This document shows, in pieces, positions 27,279 through 35,861 of a stretch of 64,000 bases of DNA. The notes beneath the pieces were generated by a model. It was not told the DNA's origin. It did not search any database and saw only the letters and a program-made list of their open reading frames with translations. The translations under genes and the position numbers were made by a program. Location: positions 173,429-237,428 of the forward strand of contig JACKCN010000003.1 in assembly GCA_020634015.1 (NCBI GenBank). The letters are read 5' to 3'. Position 1 is the first letter of the stretch; every line of letters starts with the position of its first letter. Source of the DNA: Candidatus Delongbacteria bacterium (GTDB taxonomy: Bacteria > CAIWAD01).

Positions 27279-27306
27279 CACGCGCGGCTTCGGCCGCGCG
27301 TTCTCT
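27279..27306 (+). terminator. rho-independent terminator after pckA
   Basis: ACGCGCGGC-ttcg-GCCGCGCGT hairpin followed by TCTCTT. Confidence 0.5.
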
Positions 27307-27552
27307 TGGGCGGTACCGGTCATGCCGTGTGGGATAGGTTTCGCATTGGCACGCCCCGAGACGCGCATCCAGGCCCGATCACATCCATCTGCCCGGCCGC
27401 CCCATGTCGGGCAGCTTTGGGGACTGCCGTCATCAATGCCCCTGCATTGCCATCTTGAACGCCACTTGCACGGGCCCATTCAAACCCCTCGTCCCAGTCT
27501 GGCGTGACCGCTGTCAGGGCCGTTCTGACATTGCGAACCGGGAGACCGCAGC

Positions 27553-30500
27553 ATGATCCAGCAACTTCTCCGACATGGACTCTGGCTCAGTTGTCTGGTG
27601 TGGGTGACGAGTGCGTTCGGCCAGTCACCGGCCGATGCATCGGCCCCGGCGGAGTCCCTGGCGCACTCGGGACCGGCGGACGTGGTCGTCAGTCCGGCGG
27701 ACAGCAGTGCCATGCGTGTCTTCGTGGACACGACGGATGTCCAGATCCTCCATGCCACCTCGCAGCGGATCCGTGATCTGCTGGGGGATACGCTGCAGGC
27801 CGAAGTCATTCCGGCCGACCTGTTCGACCTGCCGCTGGACGACGACGCGGCGATCCGGGTGGAAGTCGAGCGTCTCGGTGCCGTGCTCGGGGAACAAGGG
27901 CCTGTGCCGGGCGGGCGTCCGGCGACACACGCGCGCGATGGCGAAACCCATTCTCAACAAGGTGACACGTCGGACTCCCTGCAGGCCGGGGCCGATTCTC
28001 TGCTGCTTGCGGCGCGCCTGGGTCTGGATCGCGCCCGTCTGGATTTCTATTCGCTGCCCAAAGCACGGCGCGACAGCCTGGTGCAGAAGCAGACCCAGCG
28101 CTGGCGTGAGACGGCGGGAGCCCGCCAGGCAGCCGAACTGGATCAGGCCGAAAAGCGCCAGCGTGATGCATTGGCCGAGCGCCAGCGCAGCATCGAAGAA
28201 GCGGCCCACGCCCGCACCGAGGCCGAGCGCCTGATCAATGAAGAACAGGCGCGCCTGCTGGGCATCCAGGCCGAACAGGCAAGCGTGAGCGCCGACATGC
28301 TGCGGGCTCGCCAGGCACTGGCTCTGGGCGGCGAACTCAGCCTCTCGTATCACCGGCGGATCCGTGAGTTGCAGGATGCGGGCCAGATTGCCGATTCGGC
28401 CGATGGTCTGTACGACGAACTGCGCCAGCACCTGCGGACGTCGCGTGACCAGTTGGCCCGTGCCATTTCCATGGTCGCAGCGCCCAGTGTGGTTCCCACC
28501 GCTGGCGAGGATCCACTGGGCAGCCTGATGTCCGGCGTGGATCGCACGGCCATTGATCGCATCCGTCTGGAAATCGACGCCACCAGCGTGCAGTTGCGCC
28601 TGCGTGAGCGGCGCCTGCGTCTGGATCAGGCCGGCCAACTGTACGATGACGTGCGCGCCCTGAATGCCGACCGCCTGAAACTGCTGGGCTTCCTCAGTTC
28701 CGAGCGCCGGGGCCGGATCATCCACTTCGGCGCGGACGGCCTGGACCAGGCTCTCGCCGAAGTTCGCCAGGTCAGCCTGGTGCTGAGCTACCATCTGATG
28801 GTCAGCCGCAACTGGATCACGACTCTGGGCAGTTCCAGCTCGACTCTGGGTTGGTCGGCGGTCACTTTCGGCATGGTGTTGCTGAAGTGGATCTTCACCC
28901 TTGGGCTGTTTCTCTGGTGGCGCAAGCGCGGGGATGAGTTGCTGCAGCAGTGGCGCGAGCGGATCCGCGAGGAGGATCGGCGCCAGCGGGCGGTGTTGCC
29001 CAGCCGCCTGATCATCGTGCTGGACTCGCTGCGCCAGATCCGTGGACCGCTGGACTGGTTGTTGCTGGTGATCCTGCTGGTCTGGGCCCTGCCCACCGAG
29101 ACGGCGGCGCAACTTGAAGTGCGTCTGTTGGCCACGGTTCTCTTCTGGGCCTTCGGCGGAGCTCTGGCCGTGGATGTGATCAACACCATCGCCAGTCATC
29201 AGGAACAGACCCGTCCGCTGGGCGCGCTTTCGCCCCATGGAACACTGCGCCTGCGTTCGCTGCGTCTGGTGGGACGCACGGTGGTGGTCTTCGGACTGAT
29301 CCTGGTGCTCAGCATCCAGCTGGTGGGACGTGGGACCATTTACAACTGGGTCTTCTCGATCTGCTGGTTCGCGGCGATTCCCGTGGCGCTGGTGATCCTG
29401 CGCTGGTGGCGCGTGGTGATTCTGGAACGCATCGACGCCAACCGCAAGAAACGCCCGCTCGAGCGCTGGGTGTTGCAGAACCGCAGCGGCTGGAAAAGTT
29501 TCCCCGCCGTGGCCGCGGGAGGTGTCTACCTGTTCACGCGCGGTGCGCTGCGCATCCTGCGCAACCGGGTCAGTCGCTTCAATCTGACTCGCCGCACCCT
29601 GGCCTGGCTTTTCCGGCGCGGCATGGATCGTCTGGCCGACGAGAAGTCCGGACTGCAATTCGCCGAGCTGCCGGCGAGCGTCTTCAGCATCATGGGGCCC
29701 GAGCATCAGTCCGCGAACGATGTCAGTGGCGAAGGGGATGCCCAGGTCCAGCGTGTGCTGGAACGGATCCGGCGCACGGGCGGGGGAGTCTTCGCCGTGG
29801 TGGGCGAACGCGGTGGTGGCAAGTCCGCCGTGTTGCACCGGGTGCAGGAGCTGCATCCCGACACACTCCTGCTGGATTGTCCCGTGACCGGTCCCGAAGG
29901 GCTGCGCCAGGCCTTTGCGTCTCGCCTGGCCCTGGACGCGAACAGCACGCTGGAAACCTGTGCGGCCGCCCTGAACCAACCGGAACGGGATCCGGCTCTG
30001 CTGATCGACAACGCGCACCTGCTGATCCAGCCCATGATGGGCGGTCTGACCCAGTTCGATCACATCGTGGACGTGGCCCGCCACAACAGCACCCAGTGCG
30101 CCTGGTTCTTTGCCATGGACGAAGTGATCTGGCGCTTTCTGGTGCGTGCGCGTGGCTCCCGTCCGCTCTTCGATGATGTGATCATGCTCGGTTCCTGGCG
30201 CGAAGAGGACATTTCCAATCTGCTTGTCACACGCAGCAGGGAGGCGGGCATCGAGCCGGACTTCGAGCACATGCTGGAGCCGCTGCCCACCGATGCCGAC
30301 GAGTACGATCGTGAAGAAGCCCTCGCCCGTGCATCCGCGGGCTACTATCGCCTGCTCTGGGATTACTCCTCGGGCAACCCGGGAGTCGCCCTGCACATGT
30401 GGCGGCGTTCGCTGGGCGTTGGCGAGGATGGCCGGGTGTTCGTGAAACTCTTCCAGGCCCCGGACACCCGGGAACTGGAACAGCTGCCCGATCCGGCGGT

Positions 30501-30717
30501 CTTCGTGCTGCGGGCCGTGATCCAGATGGAACCCGTGCGCGTCGAGGATGTGGTGCGCGCGACGATGCTTGGGCTGTCCCAGGTCGAGAATGCGTTGCGT
30601 TACGGGCTGGCGCGCGGGTACTTCCTGCGGGAAGGCGAGCGCTACCGGGTGTCCTGGGCCTGGTTCCGGGCGATCACCCGATTCCTCCAGCGACGTCACC
30701 TGCTGGCCAGTCATTGA
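27553..30717 (+). CDS. large MscK-like membrane protein with C-terminal cytoplasmic P-loop NTPase domain
   Basis: From the N-terminus: signal peptide; ~400 aa of periplasmic Arg/Glu/Gln-rich coiled coil; ~8-10 TM helices (aa ~420-640); then a cytoplasmic domain with Walker A 'VVGERGGGKSAV' and Walker B-like 'ALLIDNAHLL'. A stand-alone MscS gene follows 22 nt downstream. Confidence 0.7.
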   Translation: MIQQLLRHGLWLSCLVWVTSAFGQSPADASAPAESLAHSGPADVVVSPADSSAMRVFVDTTDVQILHATSQRIRDLLGDTLQAEVIPADLFDLPLDDDAAIRVEVERLGAVLGEQGPVPGGRPATHARDGETHSQQGDTSDSLQAGADSLLLAARLGLDRARLDFYSLPKARRDSLVQKQTQRWRETAGARQAAELDQAEKRQRDALAERQRSIEEAAHARTEAERLINEEQARLLGIQAEQASVSADMLRARQALALGGELSLSYHRRIRELQDAGQIADSADGLYDELRQHLRTSRDQLARAISMVAAPSVVPTAGEDPLGSLMSGVDRTAIDRIRLEIDATSVQLRLRERRLRLDQAGQLYDDVRALNADRLKLLGFLSSERRGRIIHFGADGLDQALAEVRQVSLVLSYHLMVSRNWITTLGSSSSTLGWSAVTFGMVLLKWIFTLGLFLWWRKRGDELLQQWRERIREEDRRQRAVLPSRLIIVLDSLRQIRGPLDWLLLVILLVWALPTETAAQLEVRLLATVLFWAFGGALAVDVINTIASHQEQTRPLGALSPHGTLRLRSLRLVGRTVVVFGLILVLSIQLVGRGTIYNWVFSICWFAAIPVALVILRWWRVVILERIDANRKKRPLERWVLQNRSGWKSFPAVAAGGVYLFTRGALRILRNRVSRFNLTRRTLAWLFRRGMDRLADEKSGLQFAELPASVFSIMGPEHQSANDVSGEGDAQVQRVLERIRRTGGGVFAVVGERGGGKSAVLHRVQELHPDTLLLDCPVTGPEGLRQAFASRLALDANSTLETCAAALNQPERDPALLIDNAHLLIQPMMGGLTQFDHIVDVARHNSTQCAWFFAMDEVIWRFLVRARGSRPLFDDVIMLGSWREEDISNLLVTRSREAGIEPDFEHMLEPLPTDADEYDREEALARASAGYYRLLWDYSSGNPGVALHMWRRSLGVGEDGRVFVKLFQAPDTRELEQLPDPAVFVLRAVIQMEPVRVEDVVRATMLGLSQVENALRYGLARGYFLREGERYRVSWAWFRAITRFLQRRHLLASH

Positions 30718-30739
30718 AGCTCCGGGAGGAGACCCCCTC

Positions 30740-31639
30740 ATGAACCGTCGTTGGCCCACACGCATCGGTATCACACTGCTGATCGCCCTGCCGCTGGTTG
30801 CCACCGCCCAGACGCAGGATGCACCGGATCTGGGGCAGCTGGCGAACTTCATCCGCTGGGGCGGCGTGACCCTGTCCATTCTGGTGCTGATGGGAGCAGC
30901 CATCCTGCGCCGCATCGTGGGCGACCTGGCCGAGCGGCTCAGCCGCAGCTTCACCAACCGGCGTCCCACGATCCAGAAAGTGGAGTCGGCCACCAGTTTC
31001 CTGATCTACATCGTGGCGGCCGCGCTCTGTGTGAGTCTGAGCATCAGGCTGGACAAGACGGCCATGACCGTGATCGGAGGCGCGCTGGCCTTTGCCGTGG
31101 GCTTCGCGATGCGCGATCTGGTGGCGGCCTTCATCGCGGGCATCACCATCATGTTCGACCGGCCCTTCCAGGTGGGTGACCGCATTTCCTATGCCGGCGA
31201 GTATGGCGATGTGGTCAAGATCGGCCTGCGCAGCGTGCAGATGAATACGCTGGATCACAACATCGTGACCATTCCCAACAACAAGATCCTGACCGATGTC
31301 ACGGCCAGCGGCAACTATGGCGCGCTGGAGATGCAGGTGCCCATGAACTTCTGGATCGGCATCGGCCAGGACAACGAGCGCGCCTGCGAGATCATCCGCG
31401 AGGCCTGTCTCACCAGTTCCTATGTGCATCTGGACAAGGATGTGCCCGTGATGGCGCGCCAGGTCATCCTGGACAGTTATGTGGCCCTGCAGCTGACGGC
31501 GCGGCCCTATGTCTTCGACTGCCGCTACGAGAAGGCTTTCGAGACCGATGTGCAGTTCCGCGTGATGAAGGCTTTCGCCGAGCAGGGCATTCAGCCTCCG
31601 GCGATCCTGCACCGCACGCTGGGCCAGACCCGGACCTGA
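30740..31639 (+). CDS. mscS: small-conductance mechanosensitive channel MscS
   Basis: Three TM helices and the conserved pore/beta-domain 'ITIMFDRPFQVGDRISYAGEYGDVVKIGLRSVQMNTLDHNIVTIPN'. GGGAGGA RBS. The start is the in-frame ATG inside track ORF 30548..31639. Confidence 0.85.
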   Translation: MNRRWPTRIGITLLIALPLVATAQTQDAPDLGQLANFIRWGGVTLSILVLMGAAILRRIVGDLAERLSRSFTNRRPTIQKVESATSFLIYIVAAALCVSLSIRLDKTAMTVIGGALAFAVGFAMRDLVAAFIAGITIMFDRPFQVGDRISYAGEYGDVVKIGLRSVQMNTLDHNIVTIPNNKILTDVTASGNYGALEMQVPMNFWIGIGQDNERACEIIREACLTSSYVHLDKDVPVMARQVILDSYVALQLTARPYVFDCRYEKAFETDVQFRVMKAFAEQGIQPPAILHRTLGQTRT

Positions 31640-31741: not shown

Positions 31742-32143
31742 GTGGAGGAGACGCACCTGGTACGCAATCCACTCATTCGCGGGCTGCTGATCGCAGCCGG
31801 TATCCTGTCCGTGGCCCTGGGCCTGATCGGAGTGGTGGTGCCCGTGCTGCCCACCACGCCCTTTCTGCTGCTGGCGGCCGCCTGTTTCGTGCGCAGCAGT
31901 CCGCGCCTGCATCACTGGTTGCTGCACAACCGCTTCTTCGGCGAAGTGCTGCGGCGTTACCGGGCGGGAGAAGGACTCTCGCTGGCGCACAAGGTGGTCT
32001 CGCTCTCGCTGTTGTGGGTCATGCTGGCTGTGTCCATCGTCCGGCACATTCCACCCCACATGTTCTGGGTGAAGCTCCTGCTGCTGGGCATCGGTGTGGC
32101 GGTCACTCAGCATCTGCTGCGTCTGCCCACGCGCAAGTCCTGA
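31742..32143 (+). CDS. ybaN: DUF454 inner-membrane protein (YbaN family)
   Basis: 'GVVVPVLPTTPFLLLAAACFVRSSPRLHHWLL' closely matches the E. coli YbaN pattern. Confidence 0.7.
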   Translation: MEETHLVRNPLIRGLLIAAGILSVALGLIGVVVPVLPTTPFLLLAAACFVRSSPRLHHWLLHNRFFGEVLRRYRAGEGLSLAHKVVSLSLLWVMLAVSIVRHIPPHMFWVKLLLLGIGVAVTQHLLRLPTRKS

Positions 32144-32465
32144 GGCTGGGCACCGCAGTACGCCAGCCCGCACTCTCCATCCCCCGGATATCTTTGCCCG
32201 CCGAGGCTCGCCCCTGGGATCCCGCTGCCCGCCCACAGCTTGGAAATCCGGCCTCTCCTCGTGTCCCGCAACTGGAACGGCGCCCTGAGATGATCCTGCC
32301 GGCAGCAGGCAGTGCTTGCGGCGCTGACGCGGGAGCGGGAGCTTGTGTGTCACCCACGGCCTGCAGCCGATTCCCCTTCCCGGGACCTCGTGGCGTGGAC
32401 CACCGGTCGGGCCATCCGATCCGCCGCGAACCGTTCGCGGCAGGAGTGGCCCCGGGAGAGCCGCC

Positions 32466-33965
32466 ATGCGTTGTCTGCTGATCAATCCGGAATTTCCCGA
32501 CACCTTCTGGAGCTTCCGTCACGCCATTTCCTTCACCCGACGCAAGACGGCCCTGCCGCCCCTCGGTCTGCTGACCATGGCGGCGCTGCTGCCTGCCCAG
32601 TGGCCCATGCGATTGGTGGACCTGAACATCCGACCTCTCTCGGAGGCCGATCTGGCCTGGGCCGAGCTCGTGTTCATCGGTGCCATGAGCGTACAGCGTG
32701 ATTCAGCCCTGCATGCCATCGAGCGCTGCAAGACGGCCGGACTGCGAGTGGTGGGCGGCGGACCGCTCTTCACCATGGAGCCGGAACTCTTTCCCGCGGT
32801 GGATCATCTGGTGCTGGGAGAAGCCGAGCTGAGTCTGGCTCCCTTCCTGGCGGACCTGGAGGCCGGAACCGCCCGGCGCATGTATCACCCGACGGGCTTC
32901 GCCGATCTGGAGCACTCACCGCTTCCGCTCTGGGAACTGGCCGAGCTGGATGGCTACATGACCGCCTCGATCCAGAGTTCGCGCGGCTGTCCCTTCGACT
33001 GTGATTTCTGCAACGTGACCAGCCTGCTGGGGCGCAAGCCGCGCCAGAAGACCACGGCCCAGGTGCTGGCCGAACTGGACCGGCTCTGGGACCTGGGCTG
33101 GCGCAAGGGTGTGTTCTTCGTGGATGACAACTTCATCGGCAACCGGCCGCGCATCCTGCGGGACCTGCTGCCCGCGCTGGTCGACTGGCGGATGAACGGG
33201 CCTTCAGGACAACCACGCAAGGGCATGCCCTTCAATACCCAGGTCTCGATCAATCTGGCCGATGACGCCACGCTGATGGCCCTGATGGCCGCCGCGGGCT
33301 TCGACACGGTGTTCATCGGGCTGGAAACACCCGAGGACGACGCCCTTGCCGAATGCGGCAAGCGCCAGAACACGGGCCGCGACATGGTGGCCGACACCCA
33401 GCGCATCCAGCGGGCGGGCATGCAGGTTCAGGGCGGATTCATCGTGGGCTTCGACAACGACAGTCCCGGTGTGTTCCAGCGCCAGATCGACCTGATCCAG
33501 CGCTCGGGCATCGTCACGGCCATGGTCGGGCTGCTGCAGGCCCCTCCGGGCACAAGGCTGCACGCGCGCATGCGGGCGGCTGGGCGCATCCTCAGCGAGG
33601 ACTACGGCAACAATGTGGACGGGCGCACCAACATCCTGCCGCTGACGGCATCGGACTCCCTGCGCGACAACTACCGCGCGCTGATGCTGCACCTGTACAA
33701 ACCGAAAGTGTATTACGCGCGCGTGCGTACCTTCCTCAGGGAAATGAAACGCCCCAGCGTGCGCGCCCCGCTGGATCTGGATCGCGGCACCGCCTTCCTG
33801 CGCAGCCTCTGGCGACTGGGCGTGCTGGGACGCGAACGCTTCCACTTCTGGCGGCTGCTGCGCTGGACCCTCTTCCACCGCCCGCGCTCGATGCAGCTGG
33901 CCGTGACGCTGGCGATCTACGGCCATCACTTCCGCCGGGTCTGCGACACCCATCTCCGGGCCTGA
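32466..33965 (+). CDS. B12-binding domain radical SAM protein with C-terminal DUF4070
   Basis: The N-terminal cobalamin-binding fold is followed by 'SRGCPFDCDFCNV' (the CxxxCxxC radical-SAM cluster) and a DUF4070-like C-terminus. Start reassigned to MRCLLINPE. Confidence 0.8.
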   Translation: MRCLLINPEFPDTFWSFRHAISFTRRKTALPPLGLLTMAALLPAQWPMRLVDLNIRPLSEADLAWAELVFIGAMSVQRDSALHAIERCKTAGLRVVGGGPLFTMEPELFPAVDHLVLGEAELSLAPFLADLEAGTARRMYHPTGFADLEHSPLPLWELAELDGYMTASIQSSRGCPFDCDFCNVTSLLGRKPRQKTTAQVLAELDRLWDLGWRKGVFFVDDNFIGNRPRILRDLLPALVDWRMNGPSGQPRKGMPFNTQVSINLADDATLMALMAAAGFDTVFIGLETPEDDALAECGKRQNTGRDMVADTQRIQRAGMQVQGGFIVGFDNDSPGVFQRQIDLIQRSGIVTAMVGLLQAPPGTRLHARMRAAGRILSEDYGNNVDGRTNILPLTASDSLRDNYRALMLHLYKPKVYYARVRTFLREMKRPSVRAPLDLDRGTAFLRSLWRLGVLGRERFHFWRLLRWTLFHRPRSMQLAVTLAIYGHHFRRVCDTHLRA

Positions 33966-34070
33966 GCAACGTGAGCCTTGCGATTCCCGCATCCATTTCC
34001 TGATGAGTCGCCCGGGGACGCGGCACTTCCTATGTTGGGGCTGTCCCGCACATTCAGCTCCGGAGTCCTC

Positions 34071-35861
34071 ATGCCTGTCTTCCTGCGCACCCTGCTGGCC
34101 CTCCTGCTTCTGGCGGGAAGTGCACCAGCCCAGTTCCTCAGTGACCATCTGGCCCATCCCGAGCGCAACATCTCCTATGTGGACAGTTGCGCGCGTTTCT
34201 GGATGCCCACCTGGGACCCGGTCCAGGGCGGCTTCTACACCAACATCGATCGTACGGGACAGGTGATCAGTGCCTGGGGGCGCAACAAGAACCTGCTGAC
34301 CCAGACCCGCAACGCCTACGGACTGGTGCGGGCCTTCCAGCTCACGGGTGAACAGAGCTACCTGGATCGCGCTCACGAGGCGCTGGTCTGGATGCTGGCA
34401 CACGCCTGGGACACCGCCAACGGCGGAGGCTGGGTCAGTTCGCTGGGCGAGAACGGCCTGCCCACCTCGCCCAACGACAGCCGCAGCGCCTTTGACGCGC
34501 ACTACGCCTTGCTGGGGCTGGCGGCCTATGTGGAGGCGACGGGAGACCCCGAGATGCTGGCGGCCCTGCTGGCGGGCATCGAGCACCTGGAAGCGCATTT
34601 CTGGGACGATCGACCCGGACTGGAAGGCTACTGGGATCACACCAACAGCAGCAACGGCAATCCGGGCGGCAAGAGCTTCAACGCCACCGTGGACGCGGTG
34701 ACGACCCATGTGCTGCTGATGGACCTGATGACCGGCGAGCCCCAGTACCGCCAGCGCCTGCAGACCCTTGCCGGGCAGATGGTGTCACATCTGGTGGCGT
34801 CGATGCCCGCGCAGGCCATCGGCTTCGTCGAGGAATACAACCCCGACTGGCAGCCCGACAACGGCGAGACCATGACCATCATGGGCCATGTGCTGAAGAC
34901 CGCCTGGTGTCTGGGCCGCACCTACCGGCTGGATGGCAATCCGCAATGGCTTGATGCGTCCCATACTCTCTTCGATAACGTCTGGGATCTGGGCTACGAC
35001 CATGAATATGGTGGCCCGTACAAGGACTTCAACCGTGTCACGGGCCAGATGCTGATGTGGAGCAATCCGGACACGGCCAAGGCCTGGTGGCAGATGGAGC
35101 AGGCCGTGGTGGCCGGACTGATGCTGAATGGCCTGTCCGAGGACGAACGCCAGCTGCAGATGGCCGACGAGACCCTGGTGTTCTTCATGGACCATTTCGT
35201 CGACCCCGTCTACGGCGAGATCTACGAGAACCGCACCATCCGGGGCAATGAGACATGGGGCCTGAACAAGGGCGGCGGCGGCAAGGCGGGTTATCATTCC
35301 ATCGAGACGGGCTACTACGCCTACCTCTACGGCAAGCTGCTGCTGCACGGCGACCCGGCCACGCTGCGCTACCGCTTCGTGTCGGCGGAACTGGAGCGCA
35401 ACATCCGGCTGACACCGATCGCCATCGAAGAGGGAGAGCTGCAGATCGCCCAGATCCTGCACGAAGGCGAGCCGTGGACGGACTTCGATCCGCTGGAACG
35501 CACCCTGCACATTCCCGCGGGCAATGGGGGCGAGTTCGAGGTCGTCTTCCAGCGCGCGGGAACCGGACTGCCGGCCCCCGACGGCCGCGGACTTCCCGGC
35601 GCGATCACGCTCTCGGCGGGCCAGCCCAATCCCTTCAACCCGAGCACGCGCCTGAGTTTCACCCTGGCCCATGCAGGCCAGGCTCGCCTGTGCGTCTACA
35701 ACCTGGCGGGCCAGCGGGTGGCAACCCTGCTCGAGGGCCCCACCGCCGCGGGATCCCACGAGCTGCGCTTCGACGCGGGCCATCTGCCCTCGGGACTCTA
35801 CTTCGTCAGTCTGGAAGCCCTGGGCCAGTGCCGCACGCGCAAGCTCAGCCTGGTGCGCTGA
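34071..35861 (+). CDS. secreted N-acylglucosamine 2-epimerase (AGE) superfamily / six-hairpin glycosidase-like protein with T9SS C-terminal sorting domain
   Basis: Signal peptide followed by (alpha/alpha)6-like repeats with Trp-rich motifs. The final ~80 aa, 'GQPNPFNPSTRLSFTLAHAGQARLCVYNLAGQRVATLLEG...LPSGLYFVSLEALGQCRTRKLSLVR', match the T9SS type-A CTD pattern. Confidence 0.65.
   Translation: MPVFLRTLLALLLLAGSAPAQFLSDHLAHPERNISYVDSCARFWMPTWDPVQGGFYTNIDRTGQVISAWGRNKNLLTQTRNAYGLVRAFQLTGEQSYLDRAHEALVWMLAHAWDTANGGGWVSSLGENGLPTSPNDSRSAFDAHYALLGLAAYVEATGDPEMLAALLAGIEHLEAHFWDDRPGLEGYWDHTNSSNGNPGGKSFNATVDAVTTHVLLMDLMTGEPQYRQRLQTLAGQMVSHLVASMPAQAIGFVEEYNPDWQPDNGETMTIMGHVLKTAWCLGRTYRLDGNPQWLDASHTLFDNVWDLGYDHEYGGPYKDFNRVTGQMLMWSNPDTAKAWWQMEQAVVAGLMLNGLSEDERQLQMADETLVFFMDHFVDPVYGEIYENRTIRGNETWGLNKGGGGKAGYHSIETGYYAYLYGKLLLHGDPATLRYRFVSAELERNIRLTPIAIEEGELQIAQILHEGEPWTDFDPLERTLHIPAGNGGEFEVVFQRAGTGLPAPDGRGLPGAITLSAGQPNPFNPSTRLSFTLAHAGQARLCVYNLAGQRVATLLEGPTAAGSHELRFDAGHLPSGLYFVSLEALGQCRTRKLSLVR

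Follow-up and report, generated by a model that had tools for sequence, protein, structure and literature searches.

What is a membrane-spanning nucleoside triphosphatase (NTPase) doing directly ahead of a mechanosensitive channel gene? The question is raised by two adjacent genes in a 64,000-nucleotide stretch of Candidatus Delongbacteria bacterium (GenBank assembly GCA_020634015.1, contig JACKCN010000003.1, positions 173,429 to 237,428 of the forward strand), which was analysed as a whole, is here termed the window and supplies the numbering used throughout. Gene A (27553..30717 including the stop codon, plus strand) encodes a 1054-aa membrane-anchored AAA+ protein, and gene B (30740..31639 including the stop codon, plus strand) encodes a 299-aa channel belonging to a dedicated subtype of the MscS family. 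A preliminary description of the locus had seen in gene A the N-terminal part of a 'split MscK', detached from its channel and equipped with an NTPase. The results reported here trace no such descent and suggest that in this pair a channel of the MscS family is served by an AAA+ accessory subunit without precedent. The computations show how the two proteins are built and predicted to cross the membrane, how well the nucleotide-binding motifs of A are kept, how tight and conserved the operon is and that B represents an MscS subtype of its own; we infer that A and B form a complex, and likewise its subunit ratio, the way in which regulation runs and the signal to which the cell responds.

Genes A and B form a conserved two-gene unit

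Gene A opens with an ATG, and its extent is supported by conservation over full-length homologues and by an AlphaFold2 (AF2) model. The open reading frame (ORF) of gene B is listed from 30548, and the ATG at 30740 (MNRRW...) is the start that agrees with its homologues, giving the 299-aa MscS located 22 nt downstream of gene A that the preliminary description had announced. The spacer separating the TGA of gene A (30715-30717) from this ATG (30718..30739, plus strand) carries a ribosome-binding site, GGGAGGAG (30724-30731), 8 nt ahead of the start codon, and a scan of the spacer and junction returned no terminator-like site. Antisense ORFs lie opposite both genes, one of 1122 aa (27625-30993, minus strand) facing gene A and another of 609 aa facing gene B. 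Because an ORF of such size opposes gene A, length is no proof of coding in DNA of 65% GC; the coding strand is settled by homology, since a gene A profile retrieves 1191 cluster representatives at E<=1e-30 and the protein is conserved along its whole length, which makes gene A a real gene and not a chance ORF. On sequence comparison the antisense ORFs are high-GC artefacts devoid of homology support.

The association of the two genes extends well beyond the window. We examined 92 loci harbouring the ATPase gene, scoring a partner when it started within about 250 nt downstream, and found a partner-type MscS directly 3' of the ATPase gene in 89 of them; two of the three exceptions are due to contig edges, leaving 89 of 90 evaluable loci. 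Eight ATPase homologues with identities of 27-56% all present the partner MscS directly downstream, in spite of differing flanking genes. When the search is made from the MscS side, an AAA_22 gene is found directly upstream of each of the five partner-type MscS genes looked up, which come from a gammaproteobacterial metagenome-assembled genome (MAG), Archangium, Syntrophotaleaceae, Rhodospirillaceae and an uncultured deltaproteobacterial MAG. The co-occurrence of the pair across genomes, which the preliminary description had proposed to check, is hence almost without exception. The junction is also consistently tight: it measures at most 22 nt in 75 of 85 loci (about 88%) and is an overlap of the ATGA or ATGATG type in 39 of the 85, by 4 nt (ATGA) in 35 and by 1 nt in four. 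No conserved third gene was found beside the pair across the loci, the flanks of which are variable, so that the unit consists of genes A and B only.

The two genes also diverge in parallel. Pairwise identities among A proteins correlate with those among their B partners (r = 0.66), and the nearest A neighbour falls within the top three B neighbours in 57 of 76 loci. Two MAGs contain two ATPase copies each (L042 and L049 in one, L060 and L090 in the other). In the latter each ATPase copy is accompanied by its own partner MscS, and the copies are 39% (ATPase) and 52% (MscS) identical; as both genes have diverged, the pair was duplicated or acquired as a unit. The L049 locus, second copy to L042, stops at a contig edge, which hides any partner. 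At one of the five loci reached from the MscS side (L095:2539-4925, a Rhodospirillaceae MAG), the ATPase gene has a lower total length and was predicted as a pair of ORFs of 631 and 178 aa, possibly through a frameshift, an assembly error or decay of the copy.

Even though the flanks vary, certain neighbours of the pair recur, namely Na+/H+ exchangers, Usp, Castor/Pollux-RCK channels, other MscS genes, OtsA/B-like proteins and CitMHS-TrkA_C proteins. Castor/Pollux-RCK-type channels were seen in four loci in all, in one of them (L023) directly after the MscS gene. Often, further MscS genes belonging to other subtypes (about 20% identical to the partner type) are found at a distance of only a few kb, as at L004:3991-4899, L007:2591-4436, L009:4200-5132, L010:1316-2422 and L012:9095-10021, in loci that also contain Na+/H+ exchangers, Usp and TrkA-domain proteins and that look like small ion- or osmotic-homeostasis neighbourhoods.

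Size and distribution of the family

When 1.84 billion cluster representatives, clustered at 50% identity, were searched exhaustively with HMMER, the gene A profile gave 3204 matches at E<=1e-3, of which the 1191 reported above reach E<=1e-30. Nearly all of the top 150 matches cover most of the profile, the shorter ones being truncated proteins. The family resides mostly in the Myxococcota and Gammaproteobacteria, and a scan of one genome per species located relatives in 151 genomes, most of them from Polyangiaceae and other Myxococcota and some from Steroidobacteraceae and other Gammaproteobacteria. With gene B as query there are at least 3592 matches at E<=1e-30, the best 120 of which are all 64-75% identical. 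A reading of the family as rare (22 relatives in a word-filtered search) turned out to be an artefact of the pre-filter and was overturned by the profile search, the genome scan and the look-ups from the MscS side. The names attached to the relatives go no further than 'hypothetical protein', 'AAA family ATPase' or 'mechanosensitive ion channel'. Closest to gene A is a partial sequence with 99% identity from a Calditrichaeota MAG.

Gene A carries an initiator-type AAA+ module

The AF2 model of gene A was built on a 21-sequence alignment and has a mean predicted local distance difference test score (pLDDT) of 82.4, rising to 85-95 across the ATPase region; residue conservation and loop charges were computed over 142 full-length relatives, to which the frequencies given below refer, and all features of both proteins lie on the plus strand. 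The AAA+ alpha/beta base (aa 728-880, 29734..30192) is matched by Pfam AAA_22 over aa 742-853 (40.6 bits, cut-off 27), a match shared by all 21 family members scanned, with AAA_16 remaining below threshold; its modelled strands comprise residues 745-751, 771-775, 815-819, 850-856 and 875-878. The two motifs on which the preliminary description relied are present, with Walker A (GERGGGKS, aa 751-758, 29803..29826) practically invariant in its key positions (G754 and G756 are found in all 142 relatives and K757 in 140) and Walker B (LLIDN, aa 816-820, 29998..30012, within LLIDNAH, aa 816-822) retaining D819 in 139 of the 142. The residue after it, at position 820, is most often Asp (115 relatives); 15 relatives, the window protein among them, have Asn, and Glu is not among the common variants. 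Judging from its sequence, the Asn of the window protein may entail very slow or no ATP hydrolysis and, given that Asp or Asn takes the place of the catalytic Glu, the AAA+ module of A is more likely to be a slow nucleotide switch or timer than a motor.

The base is followed by an AAA+ lid (aa 881-955, 30193..30417; modelled helices 884-897, 917-939 and 943-952) that opens with the motif W882-x-E884-x-x-I-x-x-L-L-x-x-R894, in which W882 is found in 138 and R894 in 133 relatives, and which we take to resemble the lid-start motif of Cdc6/Orc1. Four arginines, R865, R867, R870 and R894, are conserved, and their position and the Orc1/Cdc6 motifs lead us to regard them as presumptive arginine finger and sensor 2 residues. 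The protein ends with a winged helix and a conserved basic C-terminal helix (W1037...RFLQRRHLL; aa 956-1054, 30418..30714), delineated by AF2 and Foldseek, with modelled helices at 980-992, 997-1004, 1008-1021 and 1035-1047 and a hairpin at 1024-1033. The core of the winged helix is net acidic (mean -2.4), as are the AAA base and lid, and the C-terminal tail is basic.

A Foldseek search of the PDB with the whole gene A model placed archaeal and eukaryotic Orc1/Cdc6 proteins at the top, over about 400 columns with E-values of 5e-8 to 1e-5; the matches include 1w5t (E 5e-8), 1fnn and 2v1u, and the alignment spans base, lid and winged helix. Further down the list come RuvB, the TnsC ring ATPases (the heptameric 7ufi, and 7plh), Apaf-1 and plant NLRs. 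In the scans of the 21 members, nSTAND_NTPase5 matched nine (best E 1.6e-5), NACHT and NB-ARC gave weak matches in two to three, and MarR_2 and TrmB did so in two. On the strength of the model, the NTPase of gene A is an initiator-type (Orc1/Cdc6-like) AAA+ module close to the border between AAA+ and STAND proteins. This assignment was preferred to a classical STAND one on the Foldseek and family-scan evidence. KAP, one of the NTPase classes that had been put forward beforehand, was discarded, as all transmembrane (TM) helices of gene A are N-terminal to the P-loop domain and no KAP-type family figures in the match lists obtained. In the model, the P-loop region hence takes the form of a true AAA+ core to which a lid and a winged helix are joined; its cytoplasmic location agrees with the preliminary description, which had put it at some 400 aa, and the folded module amounts to about 330 aa (aa 728-1054).

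Periplasmic and membrane architecture of gene A

As anticipated, the 1054-aa protein presents an N-terminal signal sequence, a periplasmic helical part and a multi-helix membrane domain ahead of the cytoplasmic P-loop. The predicted signal peptide or signal anchor (aa 1-23, 27553..27621) was read from the hydrophobic N-terminus by hydropathy only, and homologues have equivalent hydrophobic N-termini that end in Ala-rich sites. It precedes a small periplasmic N-terminal subdomain (aa 59-114, 27727..27894; pLDDT 83-90 over aa 61-110) with two invariant residues, L90 and F91, a disordered linker (aa 115-147; pLDDT <50 for aa 115-146) and a periplasmic helical-bundle domain (aa 148-426, 27994..28830) made up of long helices at 170-218, 223-276, 280-308, 332-380 and 394-426 and holding a conserved ARTEAERL motif together with N371, R374, Q399 and E403. 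The periplasmic part had been described as a coiled coil of about 400 aa: helical it is, over some 370 aa, but the model resolves it into helical bundles, an N-terminal subdomain and a disordered linker, and not into one coiled coil.

Hydropathy, AF2, loop charges and conservation concur in a membrane domain of five TM helices (aa 432-629, 28846..29439), located by hydropathy at 436-454, 503-521, 525-543, 573-591 and 598-616, with an invariant G592-x-G594-T595 in the short periplasmic turn joining TM4 and TM5. The predicted cytoplasmic loops are basic (TM1-TM2, +6.0; TM3-TM4, +2.5; the segment following TM5, aa 617-700, +9.2) and the two short predicted periplasmic loops are not (-1.4 and +0.3), so that loop charges obey the positive-inside rule and predict an N-out/C-in topology. 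Basic cytoplasmic juxtamembrane helices (aa 635-697, 29455..29643; modelled at 635-642, 649-674 and 677-697), with a conserved LAYLFRR motif, join the membrane domain to the ATPase. All domains of gene A are conserved to a similar degree (0.47-0.55).

Gene B belongs to a dedicated MscS subtype

The product of gene B matches PF00924 (MS_channel_2nd) at aa 126-186 with 67.1 bits (cut-off 20.2) and, weakly, the C-terminal MscS domain PF21082 at aa 210-285. Its NCBIfam matches to MscS, MscK and MscM are all sub-threshold, the best reaching 41-63 bits against cut-offs of 321-500. Judged by these thresholds it is a member of the MscS family of a separate subtype, and not an ortholog of E. coli MscS. 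Partner MscS proteins are 57-69% identical to gene B in seven full-length loci and 42% in the distant, incomplete L006 copy, with tblastn identities of 42-74% across loci, and the other MscS genes present in the same loci are only about 20% identical to the partner type.

Alignments of 83 partners, on which the conservation values for gene B are based, single out a periplasmic N-terminal segment (aa 25-41) that follows a signal peptide read from the sequence (aa 1-24; 30740..30862 for both together). This segment, QDxPDxGxLxxxxRWGG, has a mean conservation of 0.70, versus 0.54-0.57 for TM1 and TM2, and its R39 and G41 are at least 95% conserved. Hydropathy peaks after the signal peptide fall at aa 42-60, 84-102 and 115-145 and, together with conservation, delimit TM1-TM3 (aa 42-140, 30863..31159), including the pore helix TM3, in the region of which conservation reaches 0.87. 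The 21-residue cytoplasmic loop connecting TM1 and TM2 (aa 63-83) contains four further residues conserved in at least 95% of the partners (F71, R75, Q79 and K80). Taken together, the periplasmic segment and this long cytoplasmic loop are, on conservation, candidate contact sites on both membrane faces. The cytoplasmic vestibule assigned by Pfam (31115..31636) comprises the beta domain (aa 126-186) and a C-terminal alpha/beta domain and, by homology, the product of gene B is presumably heptameric. A by-eye alignment of TM3 (31055-31120) places Phe at both positions equivalent to the constriction residues L105 and L109 of E. coli MscS, and Asp at the G113 kink position.

Sequence comparison traces no descent of gene A from MscK

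The preliminary description rested on the resemblance of gene A to the N-terminal organisation of MscK, which in its literal form would imply the fission of an MscK/MscM-type gene, the N-terminal fragment of which later gained an ATPase, and would make the N-terminal half of A homologous to the periplasmic and outer TM regions of MscK. The searches conducted here provide no sequence evidence for such homology. MscK/MscM N-terminal models from Pfam and NCBIfam are absent from the match lists of the window's A protein at E<=1, and from the 25 of 46 families listed for 21 members at E<=5. Profile-profile comparison with hhalign assigns a 21-sequence family profile and E. coli MscK a probability of 0.8%, and a 142-sequence profile reaches 2.9% against E. 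coli MscK and MscM; with hidden Markov models (HMMs) of the gene A family, real MscK and MscM score no better than shuffled copies. A profile of the N-terminal half finds no match among PDB sequences at E<=10, and one of the whole family retrieves P-loop proteins only.

Furthermore, gene A has five TM helices where MscK has eight before its pore module, and contains no PF00924, the MscS module being a separate gene. Proteins combining the N-terminal module with MscS were encountered neither among longer relatives, the extra length of which is N-terminal and leaves the architecture unchanged, nor among the best 120 gene B matches, all of 276-350 aa. We regard a literal split of MscK as improbable. 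The likeness is one of layout and, as far as sequence comparison goes, might stem from the two systems enclosing an MscS core in a comparable manner. The remaining pillars of the preliminary description stand: the pair co-occurs, the P-loop region models as an NTPase and no terminator separates the genes. None of the outcomes that it had named as contrary to its reading was clearly observed.

A working model for the A-B pair and its alternatives

We propose, at about even confidence, that A and B are two subunits of one inner-membrane channel, in which A would be a dedicated regulatory subunit whose AAA+ nucleotide switch sets the gating of B. B would contribute an MscS-type pore with three TM helices, a pore helix and a cytoplasmic vestibule, and A would be an accessory subunit synthesised in step with it by means of translational coupling. 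The five TM helices of A could pack against the outside of the TM1/TM2 paddles of B, and its periplasmic helical bundles would form a crown above the channel, able to touch the conserved periplasmic N-terminal segment of B, in an arrangement of bundle over channel that a single chain provides in MscK and MscM. In the cytoplasm, ATP binding by the Orc1/Cdc6-type AAA+ module would alter its self-association or conformation, and this change would be relayed through the basic juxtamembrane helices and the TM domain to determine whether, or at what tension, B opens. Physiologically, the pair probably controls the outflow of solutes and ions when the cell is under osmotic or ionic stress, in dependence on its energy state, on a periplasmic cue or on both. 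A bolder version, which we put forward tentatively and at rather less than even probability, is that the pair represents a new class of channels in which an MscS-type pore is hetero-oligomeric with a ring of membrane-spanning Orc1/Cdc6-like AAA+ subunits, possibly in a 7:7 arrangement, and in which the channel is opened, locked or reset as ATP is bound or hydrolysed, perhaps in concert with a periplasmic cue sensed by the helical crown. The heptameric TnsC rings among the Foldseek neighbours indicate that this AAA+ branch can form seven-fold rings matching the MscS heptamer, any stoichiometry for A and B being speculation. Full-text literature searches retrieved no account of an MscS-like channel that has an ATPase as its partner, in keeping with the earlier claim that the pairing had not been reported.

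Several observations weigh against a regulatory complex. No Rosetta-stone fusion of A and B was seen among the longer relatives or the best 120 MscS matches, and the resemblance to MscK is statistically insignificant, with hhalign and HMM scores at background. The correlated divergence of the two genes fits their co-inheritance as a unit without proving contact, and is what simple co-inheritance would be expected to produce. The regulatory reading explains no role for the winged helix of gene A. At one locus (L028:4614-9982), the single exception among the 90 evaluable loci, the ATPase gene is followed 50 nt downstream by a gene for a 656-aa Castor/Pollux-RCK-type channel, with no MscS, implying that A is not strictly bound to MscS and that the ATPase subunit may serve another channel family. 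Finally, the MscS-like channels studied so far, the classical example of channels opened directly by membrane tension, gate without accessory proteins according to a 2026 review, which mentions no ATPase (PMC13591265).

If A does not gate the finished channel, it might still assemble, position or disassemble the multimeric MscS, in analogy to the action of ExeA/GspA on the secretin. Pfam AAA_22, to which A belongs, includes ExeA/GspA as well, an ATPase of the inner membrane that has a periplasmic domain and shares a two-gene operon with a membrane partner; the Orc1/Cdc6 and TnsC relatives are loaders or assembly factors and not motors, and translational coupling suits co-assembly. Nonetheless, the periplasmic and TM domains of A are large and well conserved and look permanent and structural, unlike those of a transient chaperone, and to make a catalytic factor by coupled synthesis in equimolar amounts would be a waste. 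Self-assembly is moreover established for MscS of E. coli and its relatives (PMC13591265). On balance an assembly, placement or quality-control factor seems doubtful. A membrane-tethered signalling switch, ranking behind it and in our view unlikely, would receive a periplasmic input, pass it through the Orc/STAND-like NTPase and deliver it through the winged helix to DNA or another target, with MscS acting as a tension co-sensor after the manner of LysP-CadC. The Orc1/Cdc6-type winged helix of A speaks for it, the weak MarR_2/TrmB matches (2/21 members) and those to nSTAND_NTPase5 (9/21) point the same way, and an Asp-Asp or Asp-Asn Walker B fits a switch; yet the acidity of the winged-helix core (-2.4) and of the AAA base and lid is unlike that of DNA-binding modules, no conserved target genes adjoin the pair, and five TM helices and an oligomerising AAA+ module are awkward for DNA binding.

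The nSTAND_NTPase5 matches in 9 of 21 members, and the fact that pairs of an NTPase sensor and a membrane effector are common in defence systems, also bring to mind an anti-phage or abortive-infection module in which the STAND/Orc-like sensor would open the MscS-type pore as a depolarising effector. We consider this very improbable, since PADLOC returned zero families for A or B at E<=1, the flanks in the window are housekeeping genes, the recurrent neighbours elsewhere relate to ion and osmotic homeostasis and not to defence or mobile elements, the pair is spread over 151 species-level genomes, mostly of Polyangiaceae and other Myxococcota, and proteins that sense phage inside the cell do not typically have a large sensor domain in the periplasm. 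That A and B are merely co-transcribed and functionally independent is the least probable alternative of all, in view of their adjacency in 89 of 90 evaluable loci of Myxococcota, Gammaproteobacteria and other MAG lineages despite variable flanks, of the start/stop overlap in many of these loci and of the origin of the MscS from a dedicated clade.

Comparison with known systems

Several known systems come closest to the A-B pair. MscK (KefA) and MscM (YjeP) of E. coli (PDB 7UW5, 7UX1) are single polypeptides that have eight additional TM helices ahead of the pore module and lack an NTPase; in the pair described here the MscS core has a gene to itself and A, with five TM helices and a C-terminal AAA+ module, bears no detectable sequence similarity to them. 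With Orc1/Cdc6 and TnsC/TniB, A shares the AAA+ base, the lid, the C-terminal winged helix, the Walker A and B motifs and conserved arginines past the strand following Walker B and at the start of the lid. Those proteins, however, are soluble, DNA-bound and linked to replication or transposition genes, whereas A is held in the membrane by five TM helices that follow a periplasmic domain, has an acidic winged helix and is linked to a channel gene. The type II secretion pair ExeA/GspA-ExeB/GspB likewise combines an AAA_22-type inner-membrane ATPase, a periplasmic domain and a two-gene operon, and acts on a large multimeric membrane assembly, but the order of ExeA is reversed (an N-terminal cytoplasmic ATPase, one TM helix and a C-terminal peptidoglycan-binding domain) and it has no link to MscS. 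In bCNG channels an MscS-family pore is under the control of a cytoplasmic nucleotide-binding module, which is a cyclic nucleoside monophosphate-binding domain fused to the channel, in contrast to the P-loop AAA+ module that is found here on a separate membrane-spanning subunit. In a similar vein, TrkA-TrkH, KtrA-KtrB and the eukaryotic SUR-Kir6 (KATP) channels employ a separate adenine-nucleotide-binding subunit that is encoded with the pore subunit or assembles onto it and ties ion flux to the energy state; their working principle is like that proposed for A and B, but their folds (RCK rings and ABC modules) and pore families are unrelated.

Genomic context in the window

In the window the pair is flanked by housekeeping genes encoding phosphoenolpyruvate (PEP) carboxykinase, an aminotransferase and a major facilitator superfamily transporter. 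A GC-rich hairpin (GCGCGGC-TTCG-GCCGCGC) followed by GTTCTCTT lies at 27282-27299, 40 nt past the stop codon of the PEP carboxykinase gene, and was not reported by the consensus terminator scan. It is likely to be a terminator parting that gene from the A-B pair, which would then probably have a promoter of its own in ~27300-27550; a sigma-70 promoter scan upstream of the pair gave no match, the sigma-70 consensus being uninformative for this organism. On the 3' side (31742-35861) follow genes for a small DUF454 (YbaN-like) membrane protein, a B12-binding radical SAM protein with DUF4070 and a GlcNAc-2-epimerase-like protein. The latter has a weak, sub-threshold match to a type IX secretion system C-terminal sorting domain (23 bits, cut-off 27), as might be expected if the 99%-identical database relative of gene A is rightly labelled Calditrichaeota. 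Between 46000 and 58000 the GC content falls from ~0.64 to 0.51-0.58 and the AT skew is strongly negative, features that may denote a foreign or otherwise distinct segment.

Implications

If A does regulate B in the manner postulated, some bacteria would place the release of solutes under nucleotide control, and possibly also under that of a periplasmic signal, and gating purely by 'force-from-lipid' would not hold for the whole MscS family, this pair being an exception. In addition, A would be the first membrane-integral initiator-type AAA+ protein to act on a channel, extending to this setting a module otherwise known from DNA transactions. The pair provides as well a function-linked handle on more than 1000 sequence clusters that are now annotated as 'hypothetical' or 'AAA family ATPase'.

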